DNA from: a virus
Taxonomy: Duplodnaviria; Heunggongvirae; Uroviricota; Caudoviricetes
Direction: 5' to 3' (one strand)
Length of the DNA stretch: 37,823 bases
IMG/VR virus record: IMGVR_UViG_2917855067_000005
The notes beneath the pieces were generated by a model. It was not told where the DNA came from, did not search any database, and saw only the letters and a list, made by a program, of their open reading frames with translations. Of this stretch, positions 1,468 through 26,584 are shown one piece after another. Each line of letters opens with the position of its first letter. Position 1 is the stretch's first letter. Both the position numbers and the translations under genes were made by a program.

Positions 1468-1812
1468 GCGGCAAAAAGGAATGTGGGGACAGGAGAAAAT
1501 CAGGTACCGGATATGAAGAGCTTTGGTAATTCATTGACCGCCAATGGATACCAGAAATTACCTGGGGGGATGATTATTCAATGGGGGAGTTTTTCTGTCT
1601 CACCAACCGGAGGAAGTGTTGGAACAGTTGATATAACATTACCTGTAGCTTTCCCTGCTGCTTGTCGTTCGGTAAACGCTCTTATTTCAACTAATGATCC
1701 TTCTGCCCGTTCTGTGGGCTTTGATATTGGAAGTACCAACAGAACTAAAATCAGATTTACTTACACTTCTGCTACAACAAATTCAATTTACTGGATGGCT
1801 GTGGGGTATTAA
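1456..1812 (+). CDS. Alternative tail-fibre C-terminal cassette (Sv'-like), promoterless in this orientation
   Basis: Frame through the crossover site encodes NVGLGEAAKR...; shares GLGE with the fibre gene at the other site, so inversion would fuse it to the constant N-terminus. Confidence 0.6.
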   Translation, partial: GLGEAAKRNVGTGENQVPDMKSFGNSLTANGYQKLPGGMIIQWGSFSVSPTGGSVGTVDITLPVAFPAACRSVNALISTNDPSARSVGFDIGSTNRTKIRFTYTSATTNSIYWMAVGY

Positions 1813-1814
1813 CT

Positions 1815-2820: not shown

Positions 2821-3590
2821 TATGCTGCCCTCACAATAAAGTTAAATGCAATATTGCGCGGTCGTGTTTCGCTCCCGCCCGTGTTACCAATACTTCCTCG
2901 TGAATGCAACCTCGGAGCCGGAATAAGGGTTCCCCCTGTATAAACGGCGTCAAGCCCCCGACCTTGTGTGTATGTATTCTGAAAAATTGTAGCCAGCTCC
3001 CATTCTTCACCTGAATCATAACCATCGTTGGCAACAACAATATGGCGGTGCTTCTCCAGCATCCCAGCCTGAATGCTCAATAAAGCACGCCCTGCATCAA
3101 TACCACGTCCGTCATCCCATCCTCGAATAAACTCACCGCGTAAATCCAGCAGTTTCCCTGACGGGTATGCTTTGGCAAGGTTAGGATATTTCACCTTATC
3201 AAAGGCAGCACCATTGCATTTCAGCCAGCCTGTTGGCGGAGTGGCTGAAGGCCACGGAATCGGTACACCAACAGGCAATGCAGAGCCTTCTCCCAAACCA
3301 AGGTTTTCGAGAGCCGTTTTCACCGTGCCATCCGATTTGATATCACCAAACGGATTCTTGCGGCTTAACAGCAGCGCACGAAGCGCGGTAAGCAACTGGT
3401 CGTTTCGCCCCTTCTCCAGGCTGGCACCGGATGCCTCCACCACGCCACAAAGCTCTTCCTGCAACATGTCAAAGTAGTCATCATCCAGATCGGTAGCAGG
3501 CGTGCCGGTCTGGGGGTTACCACGGGTAAAACCGTTCTTACCCGCGCCGAACTTATCCTTCTGCGCGGTTTTCGTGTCTATACGATGCAT
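2820..3590 (-). CDS. Tail fibre protein (constant N-terminus plus currently expressed variable C-terminus)
   Basis: 256-aa [24 protein letters not shown]...; crossover site lies inside it at the GLGEG codons (3288..3313). Confidence 0.82.
3288..3313. other. Invertase crossover site, core AA (inverted relative to 1442..1467)
   Basis: TTCTCCCAAACC-AA-GGTTTTCGAGAG inside the tail-fibre gene. Confidence 0.7.
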
Positions 3591-3593
3591 GAA

Positions 3594-4179
3594 TTACTCC
3601 GGATATTTAAAAATTACGTAGGTATGCGACGGGCAGAGTTTGTTAAGCACACACTCGATAACGGTGTCGCCCCAGATACGCAGTGCGGAATCACAGGGAT
3701 CGCCACATGTCATCCAGGTGGTGTTGGTGGCGGCTGGCATGTTGACCTGCCAGTAATACCGCCATTCCGGGCGCATTCACCGCGTCAGTACAGGCAGATG
3801 AGCAGGTGAACGTGCTTTTGTCGTATCGCGTGATGGTGGCGTCTGGTCTGCCCAGGGCAGCAAGCTGTGCAAGGTAAAAATCCTCATTGATGCCGCCCGC
3901 CAGATTAACCTTCGCATCCAGCCGTTGCTGACGCTGGCGAAGGGTCTGCGTCCCTGCCGGAATACATTCATCCGGCAGGCCGCACAGACGCTCCCAGCGG
4001 TTTATCAGTTCGGTGGTTGTGCGCGGATCCAGCTCCCGCATCAGGGCATCCGCACGCTGATGAACGCGGGTTAATGACGGTGCCGCACCGGCAATCGCCG
4101 GATCGCTGGCTGACCACGCCGGACCGGGGGGCAACAGTGCCGACAACAGACGGATGTAATCATCGTTTGTCACGTCCAT
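3594..4179 (-). CDS. Mu gp48/YmfQ-like tail protein (DUF2313-like), interrupted by a 1-nt frameshift at GGG 3769..3771
   Basis: Track ORF 3691..4179 continues in another frame as ...[37 protein letters not shown] (3594..3776); dropping one C joins ...[13 protein letters not shown].... Confidence 0.72.
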
Positions 4180-5228
4180 GAAATCGTCCCCAGTACCGCC
4201 AGTTCATTTTTTGCAATGGAGATATTGTCCGCCGGTGCAAGCAACTGATGGCTGTATTCCCCGTTCGCACCGGAAATCGCTTCACTGATACGTGACACCT
4301 TCAGTTCTCCCTGCGGATAACCATCACGCAGCAGGAACGAACGCAACTCCGCGGTAATGGCAGCCCGTATTTCTGGTGTGTCCGGCGTCACGCGGATATG
4401 AAAATCCACCGTATGTGCCACCGGCCTGAATACATACAAATCAGAGCCTGCCACCGGGGCCAGTGGCCCGATATGTTGTCTTGCTGCCGTTTCCGTTGAT
4501 TCTTCCGGAATGGGATTAATCAGGTCACTGCTGGCAATCATCACACCGACAGTTCCCGTTCCCATCCAGTGACGGTATGTCCATGCGCGGGTAATGCCGG
4601 GCACTTCTTTAGCCCAGACGACATAGTCCCCGTCAGCCCCGCCCTGAGGCGTCCAGTAATACCGCTCAATGACGCGGGCGCGCCACGTGTCCAGCTCTTC
4701 AGTATCAAATCCACCTGTCAGGGTATCTGCCTCGCCAGAAGACGGCAGACCATTCACCGGCGTGACCAGGATTAATGACGTACCGTCGTCAGCATTACCG
4801 ACCGCGCCTGCACTTGAGCAGGCGATCGGCACGCGCAGGACACCACCTGTGCTGGTTGCATCGGCAGTTGCCGTGTACTGAACCAGGTCATCGCGCTGAA
4901 TAACACTTCCGGCGGTCACCTTCAGGCCATCGCTGACACCTTCCCAGCGCATATACCCGCTGGCAGCCGTGGCCCCCTTGCGCGGACACCGTTTCATCGC
5001 AGCATGTCGCGCCAGCCAGGACTCATCGCACAGGTCAGGCAGCATGTTCATTGCCAGATAATCGATGTACCCGTAAACCGTATGCAGCGCCGCCGCATAC
5101 ACCTTTGCCCGCACGTCTTCATCCATGCGCCGGAGCGTGTCGCTGACGTCCAGCCTGGCGAATAAATCGTTACGGAGCATACTGATATTTTCTGCCAGCG
5201 TCGGGCGCTGAAATTCACTGTCCGCCAT
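4170..5228 (-). CDS. Baseplate J-like protein (Mu gp47-like)
   Basis: 352-aa ORF in conserved position within the Mu-like baseplate gene order; family call from memory. Confidence 0.8.
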
Positions 5229-5643
5229 GCGTTATCGCACTCCACAGATCATCAAAAGAAATCATTACCGGTCCGTCACGACGCCAGAGAGTGATACTGT
5301 TACCCAGTTCATTAATTCCGGTGCGGCGGATATCCAGATCAATACGGGACACCACGCCGTCATCAATCATCCATTGCAGGCATTCGCGGATATACCCCCT
5401 TACCGTCTGCACCAGCTGATTGGTCAGTTTGCTGCGCTGAAGCAGCCACAGTCGGGAGCCGTAACGGTCATTCTGTACCGCAGGCCAGGTATCCCCCCAC
5501 CATCCCATCGGGACGTCGGCGTTGTCATCAGGCTCCGCCCGCCGCCAGGTAAACAGGGAAATCACCACGGCGCGGGTCAGCGGATCCAGCGGTGCGCTGG
5601 CGCAGGTGCGTTTACCGTTCACCGTCAGCCACAGTTCCATCAT
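5215..5643 (-). CDS. Phage GP46-family baseplate protein
   Basis: 142-aa ORF between baseplate V-like and J-like genes; overlapping starts and stops typical of the module. Confidence 0.65.
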   Translation of the reverse strand: MMELWLTVNGKRTCASAPLDPLTRAVVISLFTWRRAEPDDNADVPMGWWGDTWPAVQNDRYGSRLWLLQRSKLTNQLVQTVRGYIRECLQWMIDDGVVSRIDLDIRRTGINELGNSITLWRRDGPVMISFDDLWSAITHGGQ

Positions 5644-6188
5644 GCCTCCATCGCTTTATCAGGTTTGTCGGTGTTACTGCCCTGACCGTTCTCTCTGTGA
5701 CGATGCCCGTTATAGGCAAGCCGCATCGCTGACATGGTGGTGCCGGTAGAGTCGCACATGTCTTTCACCTGCCCCGTCACTTCCAGATCCATTTCAAAAC
5801 GTGCTTTAGGTGAATTGCGAAACGTGATCGTTTTACCTGCACCGTCCACCACGATCCCCTCCCGGGTCAGCGTCACGGACTGCCCCTGATCGTCATAGAC
5901 AGCCACCTCACCCGTATGCAGCCCTTTCAGGCGGTAGCGCCGGTCCGACACCGTAACAACCACCGCATGAGAACGGTCGCCATCCGGAAACAACACCACC
6001 GCTTCCGCACCGCTGTTTGCCCTTGCGGTAAAACCGTAGGGTTCAAGATGTTCAACCCCGGCTTTGGGTTCACCGGCAATCAGGGACACATCCACGGTCT
6101 GACATTTCGTGGCGGCACTGATGCTTTTCACCACTGCCCGCCCAATCAGGCCGAGGAGTTGTCGCTGCATGGCTTCAATCGTCCTCAT
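5640..6188 (-). CDS. Baseplate assembly protein V / spike (Mu gp45-like)
   Basis: Track ORF 5640..6278; likely start at MRTIEAMQRQLLG (6188) just after the upstream stop; position in module. Confidence 0.65.
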   Translation of the reverse strand: MRTIEAMQRQLLGLIGRAVVKSISAATKCQTVDVSLIAGEPKAGVEHLEPYGFTARANSGAEAVVLFPDGDRSHAVVVTVSDRRYRLKGLHTGEVAVYDDQGQSVTLTREGIVVDGAGKTITFRNSPKARFEMDLEVTGQVKDMCDSTGTTMSAMRLAYNGHRHRENGQGSNTDKPDKAMEA

Positions 6189-7266
6189 CAGAACGGGTCC
6201 TCCTGTACTCTGGCTTTTTTCTTTTTCCGCGCGCGGGGGCTTCGGGTTCAGGCAGATAAGCATCAGGCGGGCCGACACGGATTTCCGTCAGTGTGCCATT
6301 CTGGTCCTGAGTAAACGTGACTTCCGAGACAAGCAGTTCGGTATTGTCGAAACCACAGACCGGATCGAAGACAATCACCCGCTGGTTGGGCTGCCACAGC
6401 GTACCGTTACCCTGTCGCCAGCCCTGCACCACATAGGTGGTTTCATCCGTCCGCGCCGCCCGTTGCCGGGCTTCAAAGTCAGCACGCGCAATACAGCCTG
6501 CCCCCGTAGCCTGCCCTGTCTGCCTGATATACATCGGACGGTAACGGGCAATAAATGCGTCCTCTGTGCGGGCCCGCAGCGCGGTGGTGGTGGCCTCACC
6601 GAAATCATCGTCGTTTCCGGCACGCTGCCCCGCCACCTGGTAAACTGAAAACCGCTCCCGGATACTCTTCTCCGTATCACAGGAAAGGATGTTTTCCCCG
6701 AGTACCAGCGCGGTATGTGCCCGCGTTGAGCCAATACCGCCAATCACCAGCCTGCCGTGCGGGTCGTCATAAGCCAGCGCCTGCTGCTGACCGAGTATTT
6801 TGTTGATCACCTCGATCACCGTTTCACCGTGATCAGGCTGGACATCAGGAATAACACCCGACGGCGCACCGCTGTTCACCACCTCAATGCCGAAAGGCGC
6901 AGCAAGCGCCTGCGCAATCTGTACCAGCGATCGTCCGTTAAACTGTGTCGGTTCGGCTGCACAGTCAATCAGGTCAGCAGTCAGACTGCGCCCGGCAATA
7001 CCAGTGCTGACCGAACGGGCATCGTAACGGACGGGCGTCGCCTCCACCCAGCCGGTGATCACCAGCTCATCACCAATCAGCACTTCCACTTTTGAACCGT
7101 TTTTAATGCGCGGCTGAAGCGTGGTGATACCCTCATCTCCCGGCCACTGTCGGGTGATCTCCACACTGAAATCCCGCGCCAGCCGTTCAATACCGGCACC
7201 GATGCGCACCGATGTCCAGCCATTCCACTCCCGGCCATTTACCCGTAGCGTGACATTGTCGTTCAT
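6175..7266 (-). CDS. Mu gpP-like tail/baseplate protein
   Basis: 363-aa ORF between DNA-circulation-like and V-like genes. Confidence 0.65.
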   Translation of the reverse strand: MNDNVTLRVNGREWNGWTSVRIGAGIERLARDFSVEITRQWPGDEGITTLQPRIKNGSKVEVLIGDELVITGWVEATPVRYDARSVSTGIAGRSLTADLIDCAAEPTQFNGRSLVQIAQALAAPFGIEVVNSGAPSGVIPDVQPDHGETVIEVINKILGQQQALAYDDPHGRLVIGGIGSTRAHTALVLGENILSCDTEKSIRERFSVYQVAGQRAGNDDDFGEATTTALRARTEDAFIARYRPMYIRQTGQATGAGCIARADFEARQRAARTDETTYVVQGWRQGNGTLWQPNQRVIVFDPVCGFDNTELLVSEVTFTQDQNGTLTEIRVGPPDAYLPEPEAPARGKRKKPEYRRTRSDEDD

Positions 7267-8591
7267 TGCACTGGCACCTTCAGAGGGATCGCCGGCACAA
7301 AGCCGGGATGCATAATGGCATTACGCCGGATAATGTCCGCGTCACGCGCCGCGTTATCAAACCAGGTCGCCGCCAGCACCAGCGCGGGTAAAACCTCATC
7401 CGGCGTACGCTGAATGATCCGTGCAGACTGTTCAAGGCGCGTGTTGATATCCGCATTCAGATCTGCTTTCACCCGGCGCAGCGCCAGAAACAGCGCATCA
7501 CTGGTTGTACGGGACAACTCCTTATCAATTGCCGTATTCAGTGTGTTGCGAATATCAGTCAGTTCTTCCCACGTTGGCAGGTCAACCGTGTTTTTCACCG
7601 CCGGTGCATTGTTCAGTGCCGGATGCGTGACGGAAGGCCAGCCGGTGCTCTGCGCGGGTGTTGTTGACTGCCCCACTGCGGCATTCTGCATCACTGCAGA
7701 AGTTGTTGGCGCAGGCAATCGGGTGACGGCATACGCCGCTTCGCTGATTGCGGTCGTACGAAGGGTGCTGGCAACCACGTTACGCTGCTGCGTCGCCGTG
7801 GCGGTGGTTTTACTGTCCGTTTTCCAGACGCCGCGCGGTTGCAGATCGCTGCCGAGGCTGACACCGGAAAGCGTTTTGATCATGGTGACTAGGTCGCTGG
7901 CGTTACCATAAAGGCGTTTCCCGGTACGCCACATTTTCTGCACCTGCTCAACGAAATTTTTGCCTGACGATGGCGGCGGCAGAAGTACCGAGATATCCCC
8001 CTGCAACAGCCTGGCGGCATCCGATACGGCAGAATCCACCACGTTCATCGCATCAGAAACATACCCAAGCATTGTGCTGGCATTACCGACGACGTCGTTC
8101 TGCACAAAATCTGCCACGCCATCGATACTGAAACCACTGAAACTGTCACTGATGCAGTCATCCAGTGCAGAACAGGATGACATCAGCGTCTGCGCCGTCG
8201 CCGCGCCTGATGTGGGGTAAGAGAGTTCTCCCGCTTCGACAAACTTCAGGTCAAAGCGGACAATACGCCCTTCACTCTTCGATGTGCTGACCCGAACTTC
8301 CCCGTCAACACAGACTTTCAGCTCACCGTATGTCGGATGGACAAGCGTGCCGGGACCGGGTTTATTCAGCGCTTCAATCAGGCGATCGCGCTGGTTAAAG
8401 CAGTCATCCCCCACCACATAAGCCGTAATGGACGGTCGGAAAGTGACTTTTCCCAGATCTTCGGTATAGGGCTTGTCGCGGTTCGGGTATTCGTGTGTTT
8501 CCACACGGCGACCTGTTCCCGCACTTTCTTCTTCAACTTTAAACGGTACGCCGCGAAATGACGCGTCCTGAAGCCTGTCTTTCCACGTCAT
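7263..8591 (-). CDS. DNA circulation protein (Mu gpN-like)
   Basis: 442-aa ORF; N-terminus MTWKDRLQDASFRGVPFKVEEESAGTGRRVETHEYPNRDKPYTEDLG resembles the DNA-circulation N-terminal domain. Confidence 0.72.
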   Translation of the reverse strand: MTWKDRLQDASFRGVPFKVEEESAGTGRRVETHEYPNRDKPYTEDLGKVTFRPSITAYVVGDDCFNQRDRLIEALNKPGPGTLVHPTYGELKVCVDGEVRVSTSKSEGRIVRFDLKFVEAGELSYPTSGAATAQTLMSSCSALDDCISDSFSGFSIDGVADFVQNDVVGNASTMLGYVSDAMNVVDSAVSDAARLLQGDISVLLPPPSSGKNFVEQVQKMWRTGKRLYGNASDLVTMIKTLSGVSLGSDLQPRGVWKTDSKTTATATQQRNVVASTLRTTAISEAAYAVTRLPAPTTSAVMQNAAVGQSTTPAQSTGWPSVTHPALNNAPAVKNTVDLPTWEELTDIRNTLNTAIDKELSRTTSDALFLALRRVKADLNADINTRLEQSARIIQRTPDEVLPALVLAATWFDNAARDADIIRRNAIMHPGFVPAIPLKVPVQ

Positions 8592-8606
8592 ATAAACTCC
8601 GGATAT

Positions 8607-8632
8607 AAAAAAAACCCGCCGAAGCAGGTTTT
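8607..8632 (-). terminator. Intrinsic terminator downstream of the lipoprotein moron
   Basis: Minus-strand RNA AAAACCUGC-UUCG-GCGGGUUUU followed by more U: 9-bp stem with one G.U pair, UUCG tetraloop, U-tract. Confidence 0.7.
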
Positions 8633-8645
8633 AATAAATTATCTA

Positions 8646-9323
8646 TTATCTAAAGTTACTTATTACGCGATACCTTATGCTTTGGTTACTCGCATCAAGT
8701 ACTTCGAATTTAGCGCCTTTATAGCCAATTGTTTTAGACTCCGCGAGATCATACTCAACATCGTTGTTGAAGGCCGGGCGCGCTGTATTCGCTGAAAATT
8801 CACGATATCCAATGTTGATTTTGTTTCCGACCCTTCCGTTGTAAAGCAGAGCTTGCTGGAAAGATGAGTCACCACTGATGTTCAGATTAACCTTTTCGAT
8901 CGGCATGTTGGTTTCACAGGTGGTAGCGCCAAAAACTGTTATTACACATAAGGCATTATTTTTCTTTTCTACCATGATGCCCTGCCACATATCGGCAAGA
9001 GCTGCCTTTTCCACATTGGCTGAATCAGCACCGTTTGTGAGAAAGTAATAATCTGCCTTGTTATCCTCACCAACCTTTTTCAGCATCCCCGGAGTAATCG
9101 TATAAGCCCAGGAAACTCTCGCGGGAGCATTAACCTTCAAACCTTCGAACTTCTGTGACTCACCCTGCTTAATCATCGAATCACCGACATAAGCTGTATT
9201 AATGCTTCCTACAGGAGGCTCACTATAACTTTCTGTTTTTGGTAAATAATTATACTTCGGAGATGTACATCCCCCGAGTAAAAGAGCCATGCCGACAACT
9301 GAATAAATTGTTAGAATTTTCAT
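8646..9323 (-). CDS. Lipoprotein of unknown function (moron; candidate superinfection-exclusion or surface protein)
   Basis: Signal peptide MKILTIYSVVGMALLLGGC with lipobox-like LGGC (start chosen at this Met inside track ORF 8646..9365); visibly AT-rich; own terminator. Confidence 0.68.
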   Translation of the reverse strand: MKILTIYSVVGMALLLGGCTSPKYNYLPKTESYSEPPVGSINTAYVGDSMIKQGESQKFEGLKVNAPARVSWAYTITPGMLKKVGEDNKADYYFLTNGADSANVEKAALADMWQGIMVEKKNNALCVITVFGATTCETNMPIEKVNLNISGDSSFQQALLYNGRVGNKINIGYREFSANTARPAFNNDVEYDLAESKTIGYKGAKFEVLDASNQSIRYRVISNFR

Positions 9324-9404
9324 ATCCCTATTCCCATCATTAAATAATCGGACTAATCCTACCAAGAATCAGCAAAACGACAAAACCCGTACTTAAGCTG
9401 GCTA

Positions 9405-11185
9405 TTAGCCCCCCATACCAAACCGGGTGTAACCAACGTCGTGATTCACGTCGATACCACTGGAGCGGGTATCGGTCACCCGCATCCCGGGAGGCGCATC
9501 CTTAAACGAGACCGTAATCTCGCCTTCAGCCTTCTTCGGCGCAGCCTGAACTATCTGATACGGATTGTATCCCTGAGCAGAAACGCCTGTACCGTACGCC
9601 CCATAGCCACCGGTACCCCACTGAGTCGCATTGGCTGAAACCACCGTGTCGCTGGCACCATCAGTAAACCACTCAATAATTGGCTTCAGCTTGTCCCACA
9701 TATCCTGAAACCACTTAACAACCGGCCCCCAGTTATTGATCACCATCCCCAGCGGCGACCAGGCAAAAACTTTCTTAAGGAGTTCCCAGCCAGCCTCAAA
9801 ATAAGGACCAATGGTTTCCCAGAGTTTCTTAAAATAAGGCCCGACAACATCCCAGTTAGTGATAATTAATCCCGCAGCCAGGCTATCGCCGTCGCAATCA
9901 TGCCAATCGGCGTCATCGACATGCTCCTGCTGACAATACTGATGGCACCGCCAACGCCCATCAATCCCAGTTTCAGAATCGCAAGACCGGCAGCAAGCCC
10001 GACGACACCGCGAATAACCCGGGGATTTTCATCCGCAAACTTCGTGAATTTCTCCCCCAACTCCCCCAGCCATTGCGTGATATTTTTAGCGTCACCAGAA
10101 AATGCGCCGCCAATAGCCGCAAGGCCGTTAGTTGCGGTCCCCGTCATTGCCTCCCACAGGTTGGACAGCGTACCAAGCTGGGCCTGAACACGTTTATTCA
10201 GGCTGGCCTGTTTATTCATCTTCTGCTGGATCTGATCGTAGCCATCCTTTCCTTTATCGATTAGTGCATTGACCACCTGAAGGGTTTCGGCATCATCACC
10301 AAATATTGCCTTAAGTACACCTGTTCGCTTAACGTCGGTCAGTTTTCGCAGCTTTGCCAGTTGCCTGAACATGTTATCAAGACCGCCAAAACTTCCTTTG
10401 CCGTCAGTAAAATCGAGCTGTACCCCGAGTTTCTGGCGGGCCATGACTTTATTGACGTCCCTGATTTTCTTAACGCTTAATCCGGACTGGATAACTTTTC
10501 GCAGGGCGTTACCTGCCGACTCCCCGTTCATCCCCATCTGATCCATCATGACGCTGATGGGGGCAAGGCTCTGTGCAGCCTGAAGACCGTCCTTGTTCAC
10601 CATCTTCAGAACAGAGCTGGTTTTAGTGAAGAAGGACAACATGTTGGTATCGTCAACGCCCAGATAAAACGCCTTCTGGATAGTGTCGAACAGCCCCATC
10701 ATGTCTTCTGACGCCGTTCCGGTAGCATCCTGCATCTTTGCGGCAAACTCGGCAGCCGCTTCCGGTGTTTTTTTCAGTTGTACCGCAAGATAAGCTGTCG
10801 CTTTACCCACACCGCCAAGAATGTTTTCTGCCGGGATCCCCTGACGCACCAGCATCTGCATCATGTTCTGGAAATCAGCCGTTGTACCGGGTAGCTGGTT
10901 ACCCAGGCCAATAGCCAGTTTATTGATGTCCTGAAAGCTCTTTCCAACCTCGCCGTTCGCATCCATCATGGCGACTTTCAGCCCGGTGGCGGCGTTTTCC
11001 TGATCGGCATAAGATTTCAGGGAAAGCGTCAGACCCGCTGCCAGTCCGCCCCCAAGCGCCAGCCCACCCTGTGACGCTTCTTCCGCCTGGCGTTTAAATC
11101 CCCGGATTTTCTTTTGCATTTTCGACAGCGCGGGAGAAAGCCTGTCGACACCGGTGATCAACGCCTTAAGCTCAAATTCAGCCAT
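9405..11185 (-). CDS. Tail tape measure protein, interrupted by a 1-nt frameshift near 9881..9882
   Basis: Track ORFs 9866..11185 and 9405..9746; downstream frame stays open across the junction (...LAAGLIITNWDVVGPYFKKLW...) with repeated W-rich motifs; one extra C restores ...AIALAAGLIITNW.... Confidence 0.78.
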
Positions 11186-11345
11186 GTGTGCGTTTCTCCT
11201 GCTCTATCCTGTTTGCCTGACTGACCAGCAAGGGAATTTCACTGATCGGCATATTCAGCAATTCGAAGGGATTAATGCGCCAGTAGCTGGCGCAGTCAAA
11301 GAAGCGATCAGTGAGGTATTCAGCCGTCAGGCCTGGAGGAAAAAA
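11178..11345 (-). CDS. Frameshift extension of tail assembly chaperone (GT / E+E'-like product)
   Basis: 60-aa ORF in the -1 frame overlapping the chaperone 3' end; slippery heptamer T_TTT_TTC at plus 11339..11346. Confidence 0.55.
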   Translation of the reverse strand, partial: FFPPGLTAEYLTDRFFDCASYWRINPFELLNMPISEIPLLVSQANRIEQEKRTHG

Positions 11346-11596
11346 CCAGCCACAAGCCACGCCGCTGCATTCAGGTCTGCCGGAGACATCTGGTCGACAG
11401 AGCTTTGCGGCACTTTCGCCAGCCGCACAATGTATTTCGATACCACATGCGCCAGAAGTCTGACGGACTCATCCTGATTCATCTGGTAGGGATACCCCAG
11501 CTCGCGGACATCTTTCCCGGTGGGCTCATCAAACTCCAGTACGGAGAGTGTCTCGCCATGAGCGGTAATCGGTTTCTTTAACTCAAGCTCTTTCAT
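11327..11596 (-). CDS. Tail assembly chaperone (lambda G / P2 E-like)
   Basis: 89-aa ORF between tail tube and tape measure genes; ends at a TTTTTTC slippery site. Confidence 0.68.
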   Translation of the reverse strand: MKELELKKPITAHGETLSVLEFDEPTGKDVRELGYPYQMNQDESVRLLAHVVSKYIVRLAKVPQSSVDQMSPADLNAAAWLVAGFFLQA

Positions 11597-11952
11597 TACT
11601 GGTAATCCCCTTCTTCACCGTGGAACTCAATATCGACCGTGCCTTCTTCGGCATTATGGTTCGCTTCGCCGTGCAGCCAGGCAGACGACAGTACATAGAC
11701 CTGACCGTTCGCCAGCTCGGCAGTGATGGTCATCTCATCAGACGAGGTGATTTTGCTCACCGGAAAATTCTTCGGCACCTTGAAGGTCCCTTTAACATAA
11801 GGCGCACGGTGAGTTTCCTTGCGGTCCACTGAACCATCCAGGCCGATGATGTCATCATTGACCGTCCTGTTCATGGGCACCTCAATGCCGCCGGTCAGCG
11901 ATAGCTGCTGACCGTCAATTTTGAAATAACAGGTTCCCCCGATACGGGCCAT
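11596..11952 (-). CDS. Tail tube protein
   Basis: 118-aa ORF immediately after the sheath gene; size and position fit contractile-tail tube proteins. Confidence 0.72.
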   Translation of the reverse strand: MARIGGTCYFKIDGQQLSLTGGIEVPMNRTVNDDIIGLDGSVDRKETHRAPYVKGTFKVPKNFPVSKITSSDEMTITAELANGQVYVLSSAWLHGEANHNAEEGTVDIEFHGEEGDYQ

Positions 11953-13448
11953 TATGCAGACTCCTCTGAATACTGAAGACGGAACTGATTAACCACGGCA
12001 AAGACACGCAACTGGTTAACATAGTCAGGCGGGAACAGCGTGTTCAGGCGGTTCGGATCGCTGGCATCACGCTCCACAACCAGGTACTGCTTGAACAGTT
12101 CGTAGTTTTCCACGATCCCCGCACGCTCAAGCTGACGGTAGGTTGCCTGCAGTTCCCCTTTGATCACCGCCGGGGTGACAATCGCCTGACCGGGACCAAA
12201 GCGGGTACCGTCGCTGGCAAGCTTGTGACGCCCGTACTTACTGGTAATGACGGATTTCAGTTTGCGCAGTACATACGCACTGGTATGCAGCGTCTCGCTG
12301 TCGAGGTAGCTGTTATCCGCAACCCCGTAAGCGTTTTTCCTGTACGTGGTGACATCACGCTGAATGCGCAGCACCCCGCTTTCGACATACGCCGTTGCCA
12401 CGCCATGAGACAGCAGGATCTGCTGCTCGGTCATCGTGAACCGTTTCCCCTTCGGCGCAGGCAGCATACCCACCAGCTCACCGGTCTGCGTGGGACGTGC
12501 CGGATCGTTGCGAATAAACACCGCTGCGCGGGCGGTACGGCTTGCCGCCAGTTCGTCGGCAGGCGTCTGGGTCTCTTTTTCGTACCCCGCCAGGGTAATG
12601 TGCTGCTGGTTAAACTGGTCACCTGCGGTCACCAGTTCTGACAGCGTACCGGTCTTTGCCGTATACACATGACCATACAGCTGACGCGCATAGCTCCAGC
12701 GACCGCTGGTATCGTTCATCTCGGTCACCAGCGTGTTAACGGAGGCCGTGTCGTTGAACGGCAGGCCGATATAATCAAACGGCTCATCCGCCATTGCAGC
12801 CACCGCGCCGGTGAGAACCGGAGCGCCCGTTCCGGCGGTCCCCGTCGCCACGGCAATCTGTACGCCCGCTGGCAGCACTTCGCCCCCACCGAAGCCGTAG
12901 TAATTGAGGCTGACAGGAATTTCATTCCCGCAAAGCCCCTTATGACGCGCGGTCAGCGTGACCACACCAGCCGAAGATGAAGCTGTAAACGGCAGAGTCG
13001 GAACGGCATTGATGGCATCTTTGATACTGCTGGCAATGGTCGCGACGTTATCGCCGTTGGTCACCGGTGCCTGCACGCGGGTACGTCCCACATAAACATT
13101 CACCGTGCCGGTTTCGGTTGCCGCCCCGGTCACCGTCAGCGTAACTGTTGCCGCCGCGCCCGTGGATTCAGGAACGGCAATCACATACAGCTCACCAAAC
13201 GGGTCGGTCTGGCGATAAGCCTCAACCATACGCGCCAGCTGACTTCCCGCACCACAAATCTGGCGTGCATAGTCTGCCGACGGCATCAGCACCAGACTGT
13301 TGGCAACAATCTCTGCACCGTTATTGGCGTGACCAATCAGCAACGATGCCCCGCTGTCCTGTGCAGTATTCGCCGCCTGGTTATCCATTTCCGCATAAAA
13401 CAGCGGAACCAGCGTATTCGACGGAATGGTGTTAAAGCTTATCGTCAT
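11952..13448 (-). CDS. Tail sheath protein
   Basis: 498-aa ORF upstream of the tube gene; size and order typical of myovirus sheath proteins. Confidence 0.82.
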   Translation of the reverse strand: MTISFNTIPSNTLVPLFYAEMDNQAANTAQDSGASLLIGHANNGAEIVANSLVLMPSADYARQICGAGSQLARMVEAYRQTDPFGELYVIAVPESTGAAATVTLTVTGAATETGTVNVYVGRTRVQAPVTNGDNVATIASSIKDAINAVPTLPFTASSSAGVVTLTARHKGLCGNEIPVSLNYYGFGGGEVLPAGVQIAVATGTAGTGAPVLTGAVAAMADEPFDYIGLPFNDTASVNTLVTEMNDTSGRWSYARQLYGHVYTAKTGTLSELVTAGDQFNQQHITLAGYEKETQTPADELAASRTARAAVFIRNDPARPTQTGELVGMLPAPKGKRFTMTEQQILLSHGVATAYVESGVLRIQRDVTTYRKNAYGVADNSYLDSETLHTSAYVLRKLKSVITSKYGRHKLASDGTRFGPGQAIVTPAVIKGELQATYRQLERAGIVENYELFKQYLVVERDASDPNRLNTLFPPDYVNQLRVFAVVNQFRLQYSEESA

Positions 13449-13610
13449 CGGTGTTCACCTTTTTATTCACGCGCCGGATATCACCCGCTGCTTCACGGCG
13501 CAGCCAGTAGTTGTTCTCGTCAACATTTCGCCCTTCGGCGGGCAAAAAGTCACCGCGGGCAGGGTCAGGCACTGACCGCCCTTTAACAGGTTTCACAAAC
13601 ATGAAGATTC

Positions 13611-14171
13611 TCAGGAAGGAAGGGTTATTTCGGTGTGATGTTCGATATCGCCGTCAGGCCCGTTACCGGGATCGAGATAATCAACATCAATCGCCAGCGT
13701 TCGCAGTTCATCCAGACTGTTCAGGTCATCCTGCTGGCGGGTATCGTCTTCGGTCAGCTCGCTGATGACCGAAAAATCGAACTGATAAATCAGCTCATGA
13801 CGATTCAGATCCAGCAGCGTGCCGCCGTCATAGGTAATCGGGTTACCGCACGCTTCCGGGTTCCAGCCCAGCAGAGCCTTAAAGAGCATCTGCCGGACAT
13901 CGTCCACCACATCATACGAGGCAAACTGACCGCGCTCATCACGCCCGTTACTCAGTATGACAACCACGGAGAAGCACTCTTTCAGCTCCTGCCAGTAGTC
14001 GGTCTGGCTTTTGTTTTCTCCCGGAGAGTCATCACCCGGTACCACATATGCCGCCGGGAGCTTCAGCTTTCCGACCTCCGGCAGATTTTTGAACTGGGCC
14101 GCGCCTGCCACCCGGTTTTCAAAATACGGGCAGCGGGCACGCAGCGCAGCAATAACAGGCGTCAGTTTCAT
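13611..14171 (-). CDS. Mu-like gp37-family protein (head-tail joining / tail completion, putative)
   Basis: 186-aa ORF between head-completion genes and sheath; family call from memory, tentative. Confidence 0.5.
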   Translation of the reverse strand: MKLTPVIAALRARCPYFENRVAGAAQFKNLPEVGKLKLPAAYVVPGDDSPGENKSQTDYWQELKECFSVVVILSNGRDERGQFASYDVVDDVRQMLFKALLGWNPEACGNPITYDGGTLLDLNRHELIYQFDFSVISELTEDDTRQQDDLNSLDELRTLAIDVDYLDPGNGPDGDIEHHTEITLPS

Positions 14172-18914: not shown

Positions 18915-20647
18915 TTAAAGCGAGCGGATCCCGTAGGACTCAATGTGGTCAGACAGCGTGTCTTCTTTCTCGTACAGCATGGCTCTGCCAACCGCCATAA
19001 TCAGCGCAACTGCACCATCGATTTTGTTTTCCGCCTGCTCTTTGACGGGTTTCACCACATCATCGTTACCCGGAATGGTTTTTCCGACCACGTTGCCGAT
19101 ACACCAGGTCATGATGGGATTGCCATCATGATGAAAGCGCCCCGATTCAATTGCCGCTTCCAGCTCTTTCATCGGGTCGGACATGTTGGTGTAGTTCTGA
19201 ATGATGGTGACGGGGTTCAGGTCTTCATCAGCAAGGTCATGTGACAACCCGGTCGCCCCGAAGGGGTCGATGGGTGACTCGCTGACCGGGCTGATTTTGT
19301 TCGCCGCTTTGGCCTCTTCGAGGATGTAGCGATAATCCACCTCTGCACCATCGGTAACGGTCAGGACGCCCATTTCCACCCATTTCTGAAAGCGTTCGGC
19401 TGTCCGGCGATCTTCATTTTTCTCGACGCTATACACCGTGTCATACGGTACCCAGAAACGCGGGGCCACACTGTAGTAATGCGTTTTACCGTCAATCTCG
19501 CGGGTATAAAGTCGCGCCATGCTGTTCATATCCAGCTTACGCGCCAGGTCAAAGGCCAGAATGCACGGCTGCCCCTCGAACTGCTCAAGAGTCAGTGATT
19601 TATCCTCGCAGCTCTGCCAGCTCACCAGGTTGAAATACGCCGAACGCGCCGACACCCAGATATTGAGGTGTTTTGTTTTAAAGACGTTTGCCAGACGGGC
19701 GTTATTTTTCGCACGCTGCTGCTGACTTAACAAAAATTCGCGATAAACCGACACGCCAATATTTGGATTGGCTTTTTCCAGCACCTGCGGGTCGGTCCAG
19801 TCGTCACCTTCATCAACGGTATAGATGATCCCGAACAGTTCATCGTTAGGCACCGAGCCGTTGAGCATCTCGATGACTTCCCGCCGTTTGTCGTAGCACG
19901 GCCCCTCAATGTTGTACCCGGCGGTAGTGATAGCCCACATCAGTGGCTGACGTCGCGCCCCCATCCCGGTAAGCATCGTGGTGTAAAGCGCATCTGTGGC
20001 GTGCTCGTGATATTCATCCACCACCGCACAGTGGGGTGATGAACCATCACCGGGGTTACCGATCAGCGGTTCAAAACGCGCACCATCCTCCGGACGGTTC
20101 ATGTTTGAGGCGTTAACCTCAATCCCGAACGCTTCCGTCAGCATGGGTGTGCGTTTACACATCAGTCTTGCCGGACGAAAGACTTCCCATGCCTGTTTCT
20201 CCGTCGTGGCACCGGAATACACTTCCGCGCCGAACTCGTTATCACAGGCAAAACAATACAGGCGACACCGGCAGAGATTGCCGATTTGCCGTTCTTACGG
20301 GGGATTTCGGTATACACCTCCCGGAAGCGGCGCAGCCGGGAGCCTTTATTGACCCAGCCAAACGCGCAGCAGATCACAAAGAGCTGCCACGGCTCCAGCG
20401 TGATGGGCATCCTCTTAAATGCCCACTCACCCTTGGTGTGCGGCAACAGCTGAATAAATTTGGCGGCCCGTTCAGCCAGGTCCTTGTCGAAGCGGTAACG
20501 AAACGACTTACTTTTTTCCGCCATCAGGTCATCAAGATGGCGCTGGCAGGCCTGAATCACAAACTGGCAGGCCACAATCTTTCCGCGCACGACATCCCGG
20601 GCATACTGATTGGCAGCATTTACGTTGGGGTAAGATTTCCGGCTCAT
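18915..20647 (-). CDS. Terminase large subunit, interrupted by a 1-nt frameshift in an A4/T4 run (plus 20250..20253)
   Basis: Track ORFs 20162..20647 (N-terminal, [12 protein letters not shown]) and 18915..20222; adding one T gives a continuous ...[21 protein letters not shown].... Confidence 0.85.
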
Positions 20648-21137
20648 GATTCGATGATTTTCAGAAACGGGTTAGTGGCTTTCTTCTTCCCCGCCAGGCC
20701 AATCAGACGCTGGCGGCTGCTGGGGTCGAGTCCGAGCATTGCCCCCGTACTGCTCATCTCGGACTCCTGTTCTTTTTGGCGGTCAGCTCCGGATTTTTGA
20801 CCATACCGCCCATTGCACCGGTGATGGTGTTGCCCTGTCTGGCAATATTTTTCACGGCACGTCGCCAGAACTCGTAGGCCACGCACCACCGCTCAAGCAC
20901 CGCGAGGTCAGTCACGCACAGCAGGCCCTGACCGCAGAGTTCTTTAGTTGTCAGTTGCCACATGATCGTAGCGAGAGGGAGATCTTCTTCAGCGAACCAC
21001 TCCGGTGGCTCAACACCTTTGATGGGCGTAAAAACAGGTTCATCTTTATTCAGGGCTCGCTTGCCGGGGTTTCCGGCCAGCGCCTTGCGCGCCGTTGGCT
21101 TGGGGCGACGCCCGGAACGCCCCGCCGTTCCAGCCAT
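20644..21137 (-). CDS. Terminase small subunit (P27 family), interrupted by a 1-nt frameshift in a T5 run (plus 20773..20777)
   Basis: N-terminus [30 protein letters not shown] with AGGAG RBS; C-terminal ...[11 protein letters not shown]... lies in the other frame (20644..20889); one extra A joins ...TAKKEQESEM.... Confidence 0.75.
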
Positions 21138-21261
21138 ATGCGGCACTCCTGGTTAAATTTCATTTTTCGCGGGTATAAAAAAACGATGGGGCGGGCAGTC
21201 CTGAAGGCGTCAGGTCACAGGGATTTGACCCGCCCACCCCTCTGGCAGTGGAAACTGGTTC

Positions 21262-21612
21262 TTACTTCAGCCGTTCACGGGCCGTCTTCGCCTTATGACA
21301 CGGCCAGCACAGACTCTGCAGATTACTGTCGGCATCAGAGCCGCCATGCGCTTTAGGGATGATGTGGTCAACAGTTTTCGCCTCACGCGCCACACCGGCA
21401 CGCAGACATAACTGACACAGGCCTTTGTCACGCTTGAGCACACGTTCACGGATAACATCCCATTTCGAACCATAACCGCGCTGGTGACGGGACAGGCCGC
21501 GTTGATATTGGATCCATCCTTCATCACGATGTTTAACACAATACCCAGAATTGTCTGTTGTAGTCCCCGCACACCCGTGCTTACGACATGCTCGGGGAAT
21601 TCGTGACGCCAT
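21262..21612 (-). CDS. HNH endonuclease (packaging-associated)
   Basis: 116-aa ORF with Cys/His pattern CQLC ... DHIIPKAHGG ... N ... CWPCH; directly upstream of the small terminase. Confidence 0.8.
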   Translation of the reverse strand: MASRIPRACRKHGCAGTTTDNSGYCVKHRDEGWIQYQRGLSRHQRGYGSKWDVIRERVLKRDKGLCQLCLRAGVAREAKTVDHIIPKAHGGSDADSNLQSLCWPCHKAKTARERLK

Positions 21613-21624
21613 ATTATCTCCAAT

Positions 21625-21644
21625 AAAAAACCCGCTAAAGCGGG
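21625..21644 (-). terminator. Intrinsic terminator after the 141-aa moron gene
   Basis: Minus-strand CCCGC-UUUA-GCGGG then UUUUUU, starting 5 nt after the stop codon and just before the HNH RBS. Confidence 0.65.
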
Positions 21645-21649
21645 TCTTG

Positions 21650-22075
21650 TTAGCAACTTATTAACATTGCATGGTTATTTAGCATCCAGTCGTTTAACTC
21701 ATTTTCTGCCCATTCTACGTCTATAAGCACTTTGCATAAATTCGAAGGTTTAAGAAGTTCACCTGCTGACGCCCCTGAAGGCCAAAAATGCACAGCTACA
21801 TAATTTTGAGTTACATATGTTTTTTTTATAGTTTGTCGTGTTTCGATTGAGACAATCACATCCGATATTTTACATTTTCTTTTTTTGACCAAAAAATCAT
21901 GAATTCGCTCCCCAACAGCTTCCTTAAAAATAGTTGAGTTAGCATGTTGATTAAATGTTGCAAAAATAAGTTTAAGTTCGCAATTTAAAGCCTTAGCTTT
22001 TGATATTCCTAATTGCATAGCCTTGTGAGCAGCAAGTATATGATTGCTATTTGCCCTGATTACATACTTTTCCAT
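21650..22075 (-). CDS. Hypothetical protein (AT-rich moron)
   Basis: 141-aa ORF in a visibly AT-rich block with its own terminator and an AT-rich 375-nt upstream region; no family recognised. Confidence 0.6.
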   Translation of the reverse strand: MEKYVIRANSNHILAAHKAMQLGISKAKALNCELKLIFATFNQHANSTIFKEAVGERIHDFLVKKRKCKISDVIVSIETRQTIKKTYVTQNYVAVHFWPSGASAGELLKPSNLCKVLIDVEWAENELNDWMLNNHAMLISC

Positions 22076-22449
22076 ATTCGCTCTCCCAAAAAATCAGAGG
22101 TATATAATAAGAACATAGAAAAATTTATCAATAAAATCAGCAACAAAAGTAGCTCATCAGCATTACTGACTAAAAGTTCTAATATCATTAACAAACGAGT
22201 ATTGCACTGTACACTTTTTCAAAACGGACAAGTCTTTCAGATACTCACATCGACAACCAATAAAGAACACCAATTGTACTCATCTCGCGTCAATTCATTG
22301 TAGCCTGTGAGCCTATGCTTTCTGATCACAACGCTACCAGTATTATCGCTTCAAGCAGGAATGAACTCCGTATTTTAGCATCCAAAGGAATTAGCTGTCC
22401 CCAAACAGGGTATTAGAACGTAACAATATCACTTTACTAATATAATCAG

Positions 22450-22911
22450 CTAGTTAACACACTGCGCTCTAATGTATTCCTGTAGGTAATTAACCTGTGC
22501 AGTTATCTTGTCGATTCCACTTCGGAGGCGGTAATAATTGAGTTCAGAATCTGCTGTAAGTCTTGGGCTTTCTCCATCGCCCATGCCGCTGGCTCTGGTC
22601 GTTGATTTTGCACAGGTGGCGGCGACTTGCAGGCGCTTACGCCCAGCAGAAACATCAGCACGGAGGCTTTCGATAGTCGCGTTAGCATCAGCAAGCTCCT
22701 TTGTGTATCTGGCGTCAAGTTCTGCTACGTCACGTTGACGCTTCTGCATATCAGAAATGGTCGCCATAGCCGAATCTAATGCCATAGCATTCTCATCACG
22801 CTGCTTTTTGTATTCAATAACTTTATTGTGGTAATGATTCGCTGAACAGATAGAAGAACCGATGACAGTAAAGAAGAATGCAGAGATAGCCAGCTTATAG
22901 CTCAACTTCAT
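22450..22911 (-). CDS. Rz: i-spanin Rz
   Basis: 153-aa ORF resembling lambda Rz (N-terminal TM, ...YKKQRDENA...MQKRQRDVAELDARYTKELADA...). Confidence 0.85.
   Translation of the reverse strand: MKLSYKLAISAFFFTVIGSSICSANHYHNKVIEYKKQRDENAMALDSAMATISDMQKRQRDVAELDARYTKELADANATIESLRADVSAGRKRLQVAATCAKSTTRASGMGDGESPRLTADSELNYYRLRSGIDKITAQVNYLQEYIRAQCVN
22503..22688 (-). CDS. Rz1: o-spanin Rz1 (lipoprotein embedded in Rz in the +1 frame)
   Basis: Embedded ORF with lipobox LLGVSAC and proline-rich stretch KSPPPVQNQRPEP; start chosen at MLTRLSKASV. Confidence 0.6.
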   Translation of the reverse strand: MLTRLSKASVLMFLLGVSACKSPPPVQNQRPEPAAWAMEKAQDLQQILNSIITASEVESTR

Positions 22912-23876: not shown

Positions 23877-23991
23877 AGCTGTGTGGCGAAGTAACCACTC
23901 TTAACAGAGTACTGTATTTTTTGCGTACGCATTAGTATTTTTTGAAGTATTATCAACACCAATTGTTCAAAACCATTAAAAGGATGTTGTT

Positions 23992-25026
23992 ATGACTGCA
24001 TCAGCGACCCCCACTAATATCACTCATAAGTTTATTGTTCACATTATGAACAAGGAACAACAGGGGTTAGCCACCATTATTCCTTGTCCTTCAGAAAAAC
24101 CTGTTCAGCAAGCATCAAAAGACCTCTCTAACGCACTTACTGAAAGGTACTCTGGGAGAGCAGGTAAAGGATATGGGAAATTTGAAGATGACCGCGATAG
24201 TTACCCTATGGGTAATATCGTTGATGATTATTTCGTAAATAAAACACATAGTTTTTATGATACTAGTATCCGAATGATCAATCATTTAAAAGCCAGAGCC
24301 GATGATGAATCAATGTCTACTGGTGGTTATGTAATAATTGCCCATAATGAGGTAAATGGAAATCATTATTTGATGGTTGCAATCCTAACTTCAGCAGTTG
24401 GCTCTTCAGTCCACGATTTTGAAATTCAAGAAAGTGAATATCTAGACATTGCTAAACTTCGAGTAGCGGGACGAATTGACTTAACTGGGCGCCAGAATGG
24501 CAAAGAGAGATATATTAGCTTTCTAAAGGGGCAAAATTCAGTAGCAGGTTATTTCAAAAAGTTTTTAGGTTGCAACGATATTCTAATTGCCAAACAAGAA
24601 ACAACAAAATTACGGAATGCACTTTTAGAATTTGCTACTGAAAGAGGTTTTGAACCAGAGGCACGTGAAGAGTTCCTAAATAAGGCTCATGAAAAATTAA
24701 AAAATTTAAATCGTTCTGGTGAAACTTTCGACACTCAAATTTTTGCAAACGAGATATGGCCAACTGCTCCTGAGTTGTTAGTTGAAAAGTTAACCAATGA
24801 CGATCTGGAGTTCTCTGATGGGTTCGTGCCTGATGGCAACGTTATACGTGGGCTTGTTAGTTTCAAAGGAAAGTCCAAACATTGGTCTCTGAAATTCGAG
24901 CGTGCGGCCTTGCATGATGGCAGCGTTCTTTATGATTCAGAAAACGATAAATTGATACTTACCGAGATTCCGGATACGCTAAGATCAGAGATTTTATCAG
25001 AATTAGGTGAAGAGGATGAGCAGTAA
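23992..25026 (+). CDS. Nucleoid-associated protein YejK/NdpA-like (NA37 family) homolog, phage-borne
   Basis: 344-aa ORF with AAGGA RBS; central region GGYVIIAHNEVNGNHYLMVAILTSAVG ... YLDIAKLRVAGRIDLTGRQNGKERYISFLKGQNSVAGYFKKFLG parallels my recollection of E. coli YejK; visibly AT-rich. Confidence 0.68.
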   Translation: MTASATPTNITHKFIVHIMNKEQQGLATIIPCPSEKPVQQASKDLSNALTERYSGRAGKGYGKFEDDRDSYPMGNIVDDYFVNKTHSFYDTSIRMINHLKARADDESMSTGGYVIIAHNEVNGNHYLMVAILTSAVGSSVHDFEIQESEYLDIAKLRVAGRIDLTGRQNGKERYISFLKGQNSVAGYFKKFLGCNDILIAKQETTKLRNALLEFATERGFEPEAREEFLNKAHEKLKNLNRSGETFDTQIFANEIWPTAPELLVEKLTNDDLEFSDGFVPDGNVIRGLVSFKGKSKHWSLKFERAALHDGSVLYDSENDKLILTEIPDTLRSEILSELGEEDEQ

Positions 25027-26194
25027 AAATCAGAGAACCTTCAAAGACTTAGTGACTATTTACAAGGCCGCTACATTTGCAGGTACCCTATCTGAAGCAT
25101 CACTCATTCTTTCAAACGAGGAGCTCTGTGACATCATCAACGATATCACAGAGAATCCCCATGATTTTGGCATCACCCTTGAATCTGGCAACATTGAGTT
25201 AGGCCAAACTATAACCTTACATATAACCCCCCCCAAATTACGATTGGGGCAGCTACATTTCTCTTTTAATGAGTATTTAAAAAATCCTAAAAATAGGATA
25301 AAGGAAGCCAGTAACTTCTTTATAATCGAACTTAATTATCACAACAGGGATAAAAAGTCGCCTGCTATTATATCCAAGTACAGAGATGTTTTGAGCTTAA
25401 TTACTTTATTCAAAGATTGTTCTGCTTATTTAGATGAAACAAATTTTGAATTGGTATTCGTCGAATCCAACGTACTAAAAATTCCAGTAAATTATTCTAG
25501 CGATGATCTTATGAATGTTAATGGAGATCTGATTCATAATTTGATCGCAAACTTTGCAGAAGATACGCATAAAGATCAAAAACTTACTATTTTAGCAAGT
25601 AGTATAAAATCATCATGTGAATCTAAAACTAAAGAAACCTCTTTTTCCTTCATGTTAAGGGATTTAGGACAACTTTATGAAAGTTATCAAAAAGGATACA
25701 AAGTATTCGTTTCTGGTTTTTCTTACGAGAAAATACTGGATCAGTTACGAGTAGCCAAAATAGAAGAGATGGGGAAAATACATAAAGTATTCAGTGACAT
25801 ACAAAAATCAGATATTAGGTATCCCCTCGCAACAATTATCGTTGCGACTCAAATGAAGCAGGCTAATGGTTGGGATAGTCAAGCATTAATAAACACAGCT
25901 GTAGTGTTGGGTGCATTGTTCTTCACTATTATGATTATATTTGTTCTATTTAATCAATGGCAAACTTTAACAGCAATAAATGATGAGTTAAATCATAAAA
26001 AACAACAAGCAGAATATAACTTCAAGGCTATTTACGAAGATATAAAGGATACATTTGATAGTTTAACCACAAGATTGCTTGTTCAGAAAGTTGTTTTTGC
26101 CTCATTAGGAATTATAGTTTTATGTGGCTTATATCTTACATTTAGATTCTACTTTTTACTTACACCTTATGCTATTACATATTTATTTATCTGA
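25016..26194 (+). CDS. Hypothetical protein with two C-terminal transmembrane helices (partner of the YejK-like gene)
   Basis: Track ORF from GTG 25007; ATG at 25016 has AGGTGA 6 nt upstream; overlaps the upstream gene; hydrophobic segments NTAVVLGALFFTIMIIFVLF and VVFASLGIIVLCGLYLTFRFYFLL; AT-rich. Confidence 0.65.
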   Translation: MSSKNQRTFKDLVTIYKAATFAGTLSEASLILSNEELCDIINDITENPHDFGITLESGNIELGQTITLHITPPKLRLGQLHFSFNEYLKNPKNRIKEASNFFIIELNYHNRDKKSPAIISKYRDVLSLITLFKDCSAYLDETNFELVFVESNVLKIPVNYSSDDLMNVNGDLIHNLIANFAEDTHKDQKLTILASSIKSSCESKTKETSFSFMLRDLGQLYESYQKGYKVFVSGFSYEKILDQLRVAKIEEMGKIHKVFSDIQKSDIRYPLATIIVATQMKQANGWDSQALINTAVVLGALFFTIMIIFVLFNQWQTLTAINDELNHKKQQAEYNFKAIYEDIKDTFDSLTTRLLVQKVVFASLGIIVLCGLYLTFRFYFLLTPYAITYLFI

Positions 26195-26218
26195 CGGCCA
26201 ATATGGCCGTCTAATAAA

Positions 26219-26567
26219 TTACCCATGTATTATATATATAACTGCATCAATAAATCCCAATGCAGCTTGCAACTTTTTTCTTATAGTCCCATCAGAGCAT
26301 TTTCTCTTCTTCGCAATAGTGCGTAATGAGATACCGATAACAAAGTGAGCAATGATTAGCTCATATTCTTCAGGCCTATATTTACGCAACCGAGCCACAC
26401 AACTGTCTATCATAATGCCTTCGTCATCATCACACTGAATCCGGGACTTTTTTGCCATGAGGTAAAAGTCCCTTGAAGCCAGCGGCTACCGGTTGCCAGT
26501 CCACTCCGCTATTGTCTGAAGCAGCCCAAGCTCCCCAACGATCCATTACTTCATACATATCACGCAT
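26219..26567 (-). CDS. Q: Late-gene antiterminator Q-like protein, interrupted by a 1-nt frameshift in a T6 run (plus 26448..26453)
   Basis: Upstream frame [40 protein letters not shown] continues in track ORF 26219..26458 ([21 protein letters not shown]...); GGAGAAAG RBS before the ATG at 26567. Confidence 0.68.
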
Positions 26568-26584
26568 CAACTTTCTCCACAAAA

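Follow-up and report, generated by a model that had tools for sequence, protein, structure and literature searches.

A probable moron cassette with a very rare 141-aa protein in the Rz-to-HNH cargo slot of an HK97-type lambdoid prophage

The segment at about 21523-22460 of the window, by which we mean the whole 37,823-nt stretch of viral DNA analysed here, is in our reading an autonomous moron cassette that occupies the cargo slot between Rz and HNH in a lambdoid prophage of the HK97 type and carries a single small gene with an accessory, non-structural role, and we put the probability of this reading at roughly 85%. A moron is defined by a GC content unlike that of the neighbouring genes, by a promoter and a terminator of its own, and by expression from the repressed prophage (PMC3594210). 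Like the lambdoid morons HK97 gene 15, lambda bor and lom, the cassette is extra DNA in comparison to sister phages, deviates in GC, and has its own promoter-like site and predicted terminator within the late operon.

Results

The cassette gene

The 141-aa open reading frame (Table 1) is a true coding gene under purifying selection. Compared to its homologue in Citrobacter portucalensis, which is ~76-78% identical (76% for the protein), it shows 77 differences, with 20, 16 and 41 at the first, second and third codon positions, respectively, and a dN/dS of 0.25. In Citrobacter, GAGGAGGGA is found at the position equivalent to the GGGAGA of the gene. The first-pass annotation had described an AT-rich 141-aa gene between Rz and the HNH and terminase genes, and the composition is as described: the ORF has 34.0% GC and the intergenic stretch 22076-22449 has 35.6%, against ~54-55% downstream (HNH 54.1%, terS-terL 55.2%), 46.3% for Rz and 49.9% over the window as a whole. 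Only 2.3% of segments of equal size are equally AT-rich, and nearly all of these fall within the cassette region or within an island at 23.9-26.2 kb.

Table 1. Features of the cassette, its flanks and other elements discussed in the text (positions refer to the window unless a locus or accession is given)
Feature	Position	Strand	Remarks
Rz (i-spanin), upstream flank	22450-22911	minus	PF03245, E 1.5e-38
Rz1, embedded in Rz	22503-22718	minus	lipobox LLGVSAC; from the ORF list
Exchangeable cassette	21523-22460	minus	first ~30 HNH codons to last Rz codons; 36.5% GC
Distal spacer	22193-22449	minus	between Rz stop and gene module; no detectable function
Proximal upstream region	22076-22192	minus	travels with gene; candidate promoter and 5'UTR; 28% GC
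Putative sigma-70-like promoter, TTGATA-16 nt-TATTAT	22104-22131	minus	29 nt before ATG; best site, 10/12 matches
Shine-Dalgarno, GGGAGA	22082-22087	minus	6 nt before ATG, from sequence
141-aa gene	21650-22075	minus	ATG start, TAA stop (21652-21650); predicted soluble alpha/beta protein of an unannotated, very rare family
Predicted intrinsic terminator of cassette	21625-21645	minus	stem A-CCCGC (21645-21640) / GCGGG-T (21635-21630), loop TTTA
HNH endonuclease, downstream flank	21262-21612	minus	PF01844, E 7e-16; first gene of HK97-type packaging module
Split terS	20644-20889 / 20754-21146		
Split terL	18915-20222 / 20162-20647		
Split Q	26430-26582 / 26219-26458		
Second-island genes	23992-25026, 25007-26194	plus	
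Palindromic element, related loci	L006 7945 and 9033; L009 7945; L010 1681; L012 58; L017 7945; L018 1245		
Palindromic element, phages	phi80 NC_021190 44298-44337; ZF40 NC_019522 21739-21779		

Flanks and cassette exchange

The prophage of E. coli H22 is 97.8% identical, and in its annotation HNH is followed by P27-family TerS, TerL and then the portal gene. When a 2.5-kb query across the slot was compared to 5,426 complete E. coli genomes, the flanks were matched in 3,498 and the 141-aa gene in one, namely H22. Sister prophages, in which Rz and HNH are 92-95% identical, carry different AT-rich cargo on the same strand, and homology to them ends at 21522 and restarts at 22460-22475. Their cargo consists of a 229-aa hypothetical protein, a 287-aa DUF6236 protein (the commonest cargo among the matches listed), or two small ORFs of 74 and 50 aa; the loci concerned (L020, L021 and L022) belong to E. 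coli FDAARGOS_1262, GPEC1209 and 20KM0223N, respectively. These inserts have 33-40% GC, and two of the three end in a hairpin and T run of their own before HNH. The alternative cargoes gave no PADLOC match, and a Pfam match was obtained for the DUF6236 protein only, which belongs to a family of unknown function; the N-terminus of the 229-aa protein looks hydrophobic by eye. The Rz-to-HNH junction of this very common E. coli prophage lineage is a cargo-exchange hotspot, and the earlier proposal of a moron in a post-Rz cargo site is supported, as sister prophages swap other AT-rich cargo between the same flanks.

The post-Rz slot is the position of bor in lambda, where bor lies on the strand opposite to the late operon, whereas the 141-aa gene is on the same strand. 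Variable prophage hotspots with antiviral cargo have been described in P2-like phages and P4-like satellites (PMC9122126). The present slot resembles them in its fixed location between conserved core genes and in the mutually exclusive cargo of close relatives; unlike them, it is found in an HK97-like lambdoid phage, holds a single small gene here, and has no cargo matching a known defence model.

Two other features of the prophage were recorded. A second AT-rich cargo island (23937-26246, 35% GC) lies between holin and Q on the opposite strand. One of its ORFs encodes an NA37/YejK-like nucleoid-associated protein of 344 aa (PF04245, E 8e-69), and another, of 395 aa, has a hydrophobic C-terminus and matched no family; because other cargo is present at the holin-Q site in H22 and in the IMG/VR relative, this is a second exchange hotspot. 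The window also has single-base deletions at 20260, 20772, 21232 and 26219-26582, each of which falls in a short homopolymer run. Comparison to H22, an IMG/VR contig and a Logan contig shows that two of these deletions split terL and terS; a third (21232) is in the HNH-terS intergenic region, where the Logan contig has the same state; and Q is split as well. Either this is a cryptic, decaying prophage in which the cargo gene is intact, or these are homopolymer assembly errors.

Terminator and HNH junction

Downstream of the stop codon, CAAGA is followed by CCCGC (21644-21640), TTTA, GCGGG (21635-21631) and T6 (21630-21625), so that the hairpin begins 5 nt past the stop, exactly as had been noted at first reading. 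The 51-nt stretch containing it has a folding energy of -15.3 kcal/mol (z = -3.15), which was matched by 2 of 200 shuffles. The stem is invariant in Citrobacter, with changes confined to the loop, and a hairpin and T run are found 3' of the stop in 7 of 9 distinct family loci. On these sequence features, the 141-aa gene is predicted to have its own terminator. A consensus terminator scanner listed none after the gene, which we regard as an artefact of the tool, probably due to a possible extension of the stem into the T run. The HNH gene has no promoter of its own past the terminator, and because its GGAG ribosome-binding site and ATG (21612) directly adjoin the T run, it can be reached by read-through alone.

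The upstream stretch

The first-pass annotation also reported a long AT-rich leader of about 375 nt upstream of the gene. The non-coding and AT-rich part of this description stands, as 374 nt without coding capacity (22076-22449) separate the Rz stop from the gene, but the word leader is not supported: the promoter-like site is 29 nt from the ATG, 225 nt of the stretch are absent in H22, and no structure, repeats or homology speak for a functional leader, so that most of it is spacer. Promoter-like sites in the AT-rich region numbered 5, against 3.7 +/- 2.2 expected from shuffles, and are therefore not above chance. Support for the putative promoter comes instead from conservation, because its -35 lies within TGATTTTATTGATAAAT, a block of 17 nt in which E. 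coli and Citrobacter do not differ at all, in surroundings that are ~73% identical. DNA similarity to the Citrobacter locus covers the proximal 117 nt only, ending at 22192. H22 lacks 22186-22410, in the alignment a 225-nt deletion with a 3-nt microhomology, while one IMG/VR contig and one Logan contig keep this segment; searches of E. coli genomes and of phages returned nothing that matched the distal spacer. With the putative promoter near the ATG and much of the distal stretch missing in H22, the 5'UTR of the moron itself would be a few tens of nt long, and the rest of the upstream stretch would be filler, present only in the late read-through transcript.

Other identities considered for the upstream stretch were rejected. 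A structured RNA or riboswitch is not indicated by its folding (z +0.34), and the Rfam matches were sub-threshold and traceable to the terminator hairpin. Tandem repeats were absent and such repeats as were found were short and in two copies, which disposes of a ToxI-like repeat array or a mobile element, and tblastx and blastn against the fetched loci and the rest of the window gave nothing past the proximal 117 nt that would identify a decayed gene. An 18-nt imperfect direct repeat (83% identical) is formed by TTTATCAATAAAATCAGC and TTTACTAATATAATCAGC, at 22124-22141 and 22433-22450. One copy lies over the promoter -35 block and the other adjoins the Rz stop, so that the two bracket the distal spacer; the repeat could be a trace of cassette insertion, or due to chance.

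Predicted structure and biochemical character

AlphaFold2, run on the family alignment, returned a model of alternating strands and helices (pLDDT 89.8, pTM 0.88), according to which the protein is a generic RecA-like alpha/beta domain. Its pI is 9.1 (6-9 across the family), no transmembrane segment or lipobox was detected, the top 19-residue hydropathy is 0.75, and the protein is predicted to be soluble and cytoplasmic. Foldseek searches of viral models (BFVD) retrieved mostly large terminases (E ~4e-4, TM 0.55-0.6), and searches of the PDB retrieved the packaging ATPases of phi29, Sf6 and P74-26, all with E >= 0.01. We treat this resemblance between models as a lead, not as evidence of membership in the TerL family. 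Homology to TerL was rejected on an hhalign probability of 0.1% against TerL of H22 and of three relatives' loci, and the remote-homology check proposed at the outset has accordingly turned up no relationship to a packaging protein, just a generic likeness of fold.

Set beside ASCE/RecA-like domains such as the large-terminase ATPase, helicase RecA2 and thymidine kinase, the protein is short (~140 aa) and has no Walker A motif (GxxxxGK[ST]); the loop past strand 1 reads RANSNH and is variable in the family. Its VEW strand is not a conserved Walker B with catalytic Glu, as the Glu is replaced by Q or S in some members, and there is no profile similarity to these domains. Only G23, A27, three Trp and L127 are near-invariant in the family. 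Given that there is neither a P-loop nor conserved catalytic residues, stoichiometric binding is the most likely mode of action rather than catalysis, and the model would most likely represent a non-enzymatic binding domain.

A toxin, as initially suggested, or a toxin-antitoxin or abortive-infection module would be in keeping with a small gene that stands alone, is AT-rich, has moved horizontally and brings its own transcription signals. The cassette, however, has no conserved adjacent partner ORF and no tandem repeats for a ToxI-like RNA antitoxin, the protein shows no PADLOC or Pfam toxin domain and no hydrophobic peptide character, and a toxin expressed by itself from a sigma-70 promoter would not be kept. 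Among the explanations considered here, we believe this to be the most improbable.

The protein family and its genomic contexts

No Pfam, PHROGs, PADLOC or NCBIfam family was matched by the protein, in accordance with the statement at first reading that it had no recognisable family, and a PDB sequence-profile search with the family gave noise only. Two profile iterations over 5.8 billion proteins yielded ~15 clusters with no annotated member, and an exhaustive phmmer scan of 1.84 billion representatives yielded 10 family matches. The family was found in none of 50,697 sequenced phages, 72,556 plasmids or the GTDB species representatives, and in IMG/VR the gene was present in one contig, of the same prophage lineage. 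Distant relatives align end to end with the window protein at 22-39% identity, and full-length members measure 139-142 aa. Such extreme rarity might suggest a functionless passenger, that is, an ORF carried along at a recombination hotspot and not selected for any role in this prophage, all the more if the window prophage is decaying, as the frameshifts in Q, terS and terL may indicate. The purifying selection on the gene, the length kept in spite of such low identity, a confident and well-packed model and the conservation of the transcription signals all argue against this possibility, which we hold to be very unlikely.

In every informative context the family gene is found past the lysis cassette and ahead of the packaging genes, on the late-operon strand, in enterobacterial prophages. 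This position recurs in 8 further lineages, which include Citrobacter, Serratia, Buttiauxella and metagenomic prophages, and the neighbours comprise unrelated lysis enzymes (GH24, GH108, M15, CHAP) and either HNH/P27 or Terminase_2 packaging modules. All family genes are more AT-rich than their flanks. In a lineage made of Serratia marcescens and a related contig (L007, L008 and L011), the family gene lies 84 nt past an Acb2/Tad1-hairpin gene (E 6e-14); no terminator was seen in this gap, one is found after the pair, and genes for Mom and a ParB-methyltransferase are nearby.

This neighbourhood raises the possibility of counter-defence, in which the protein would bind a signalling nucleotide or an immune protein of the host as a small inhibitor or sponge, and would be made together with the late genes, perhaps with some low expression in the lysogen as well. 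Besides the shared neighbourhood in that lineage, the protein resembles Acb2/Tad1 sponges in being a small, non-enzymatic phage accessory protein; it is fast-evolving (22-39% identity) and has no catalytic residues, which is typical of inhibitors, its gene is always on the late-operon strand, and in our inference from the model its conserved Trp, Ser and Glu follow predicted beta-strands. On the other hand, adjacency to Acb2 is seen in just 1 of ~8 lineages, no known anti-defence fold is among the top PDB or BFVD matches, and the gene is absent from all of the sequenced phages and plasmids searched. The PF24729 hairpin domain had no match in the nine family members scanned, and the predicted fold, with its alternating strands and helices, looks unrelated to that of Acb2/Tad1. 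Furthermore, the protein is not acidic and hence not a DNA mimic, and a promoter-plus-terminator layout is more typical of lysogen-expressed genes. All in all, we consider counter-defence unlikely, if by no means far-fetched.

A separate observation concerns a palindromic element of ~40 nt, GGCATTACAGCAGGCAyTCAnnGAGTGyCTG(T/C)GATAATG, which is highly conserved in related loci and is not in the window. Its 9-bp stem encloses a loop of 3 variable nt, after which comes TGTGATAAT, resembling an extended -10, and it was found in at least 120 IMG/VR contigs (L023-L142). The element begins 0-7 nt past the stop of varied upstream genes (DUF2560 in 41 loci, Acb2/Tad1-hairpin in 9, rha in phi80, a Mom-like gene in ZF40), and directly past it the sequences diverge into unrelated cargo genes, which form 52 clusters among 104 and include HNH and lipoproteins; in four lineages it stands ahead of the 141-aa family gene. 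The annotation of phi80 does not mark it, Rfam gave no match, and its sequence was not found in the literature. It may be a shared moron promoter or operator, or a recombination boundary for cassette exchange.

The Citrobacter portucalensis copy

The Citrobacter portucalensis copy (L002, JABVAY010000005.1, ~1-13765) belongs to a prophage remnant adjoining a genomic island. What is left of the prophage is part of an endolysin gene, the 141-aa gene itself, HNH, and 72 nt of the spacer between HNH and terS, with no terminase or head genes. The upstream gene is reduced to a C-terminal fragment of a PG_binding_3 endolysin, and HNH has a stop at codon 4 (CGA to TGA); in spite of such decay in its neighbours, the 141-aa gene, the promoter-like block and the terminator are all intact. 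The endolysin fragment and the HNH nonsense codon rule out that this copy is a satellite with an ORF141-HNH-cos arrangement. Synonymous divergence between the window and Citrobacter is 0.55 for the cargo gene and 1.6 for HNH, and these two genes therefore have different histories. The adjoining island carries genes for a DUF927 primase, SSB, ProQ, PerC, a DNA methylase and a GmrSD + HEPN defence pair, and lies next to tRNA-Met, mug and rpoD.

The position of the gene between lysis and packaging genes, invariant in all informative contexts, would be explained if the product were a helper of either process, such as a regulator or adaptor of HNH and terminase or of lysis timing. Dispensability argues otherwise, given that the flanks occur in 3,498 E. 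coli genomes and the gene in 1 of 5,426, and so do the association with unrelated lysis cassettes and with both types of packaging module, the intact copy in a Citrobacter remnant devoid of terminase, the gene's own predicted terminator ahead of HNH, and the hhalign result against TerL. A helper role is, in our opinion, improbable.

Discussion

The moron reading brings these results together in the following way. In the lysogen, the gene would be transcribed from its own sigma-70 promoter, and the transcript would end at its own terminator, while during lytic growth a Q-modified late transcript would read through the cassette to HNH and terminase. The product would be a cytoplasmic RecA-like domain that lost, or never had, its P-loop and that binds a partner stoichiometrically, and it would act independently of lysis and packaging. 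This independence is suggested by the intact Citrobacter copy in a remnant with no terminase or head genes, although that copy may be intact just because the remnant is recent.

As to what the binding achieves, the protein may be of benefit to the lysogen or the prophage against other phages with which it is in conflict, or may modulate the host, as an exclusion factor or as an inhibitor of a host factor. We propose this role only tentatively, at well below even odds and just ahead of counter-defence. The promoter is a consensus match of a kind not enriched over shuffles, the 141-aa protein has no PADLOC defence model match, and its late-operon strand in every context is what would be expected of a plain late gene as well. 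The lineage in which the gene comes right after that for the Acb2 anti-CBASS sponge points to counter-defence instead. Known exclusion morons, moreover, are usually membrane proteins or lipoproteins, and the 141-aa protein is neither: a signal peptide with lipobox and transmembrane helices, as in Bor- or Sie-like envelope morons, were not found in it, and unlike the products of HK97 gene 15, lambda bor and lom it is predicted to be a soluble cytoplasmic alpha/beta protein.

The unannotated protein family reported here is new, while the type of element that carries it, a moron in a prophage cargo hotspot, is well known and will come as no surprise to phage biologists. The 141-aa moron is nonetheless a useful candidate for screening, and the Rz-HNH hotspot, with at least four alternative cassettes of unknown function, could be mined systematically. 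To our knowledge, P-loop-less RecA-like domains have no link to exclusion or counter-defence; should the 141-aa protein turn out to act in exclusion or as a counter-defence inhibitor, it would represent a new family in which a P-loop-less RecA-like fold serves in such a role.
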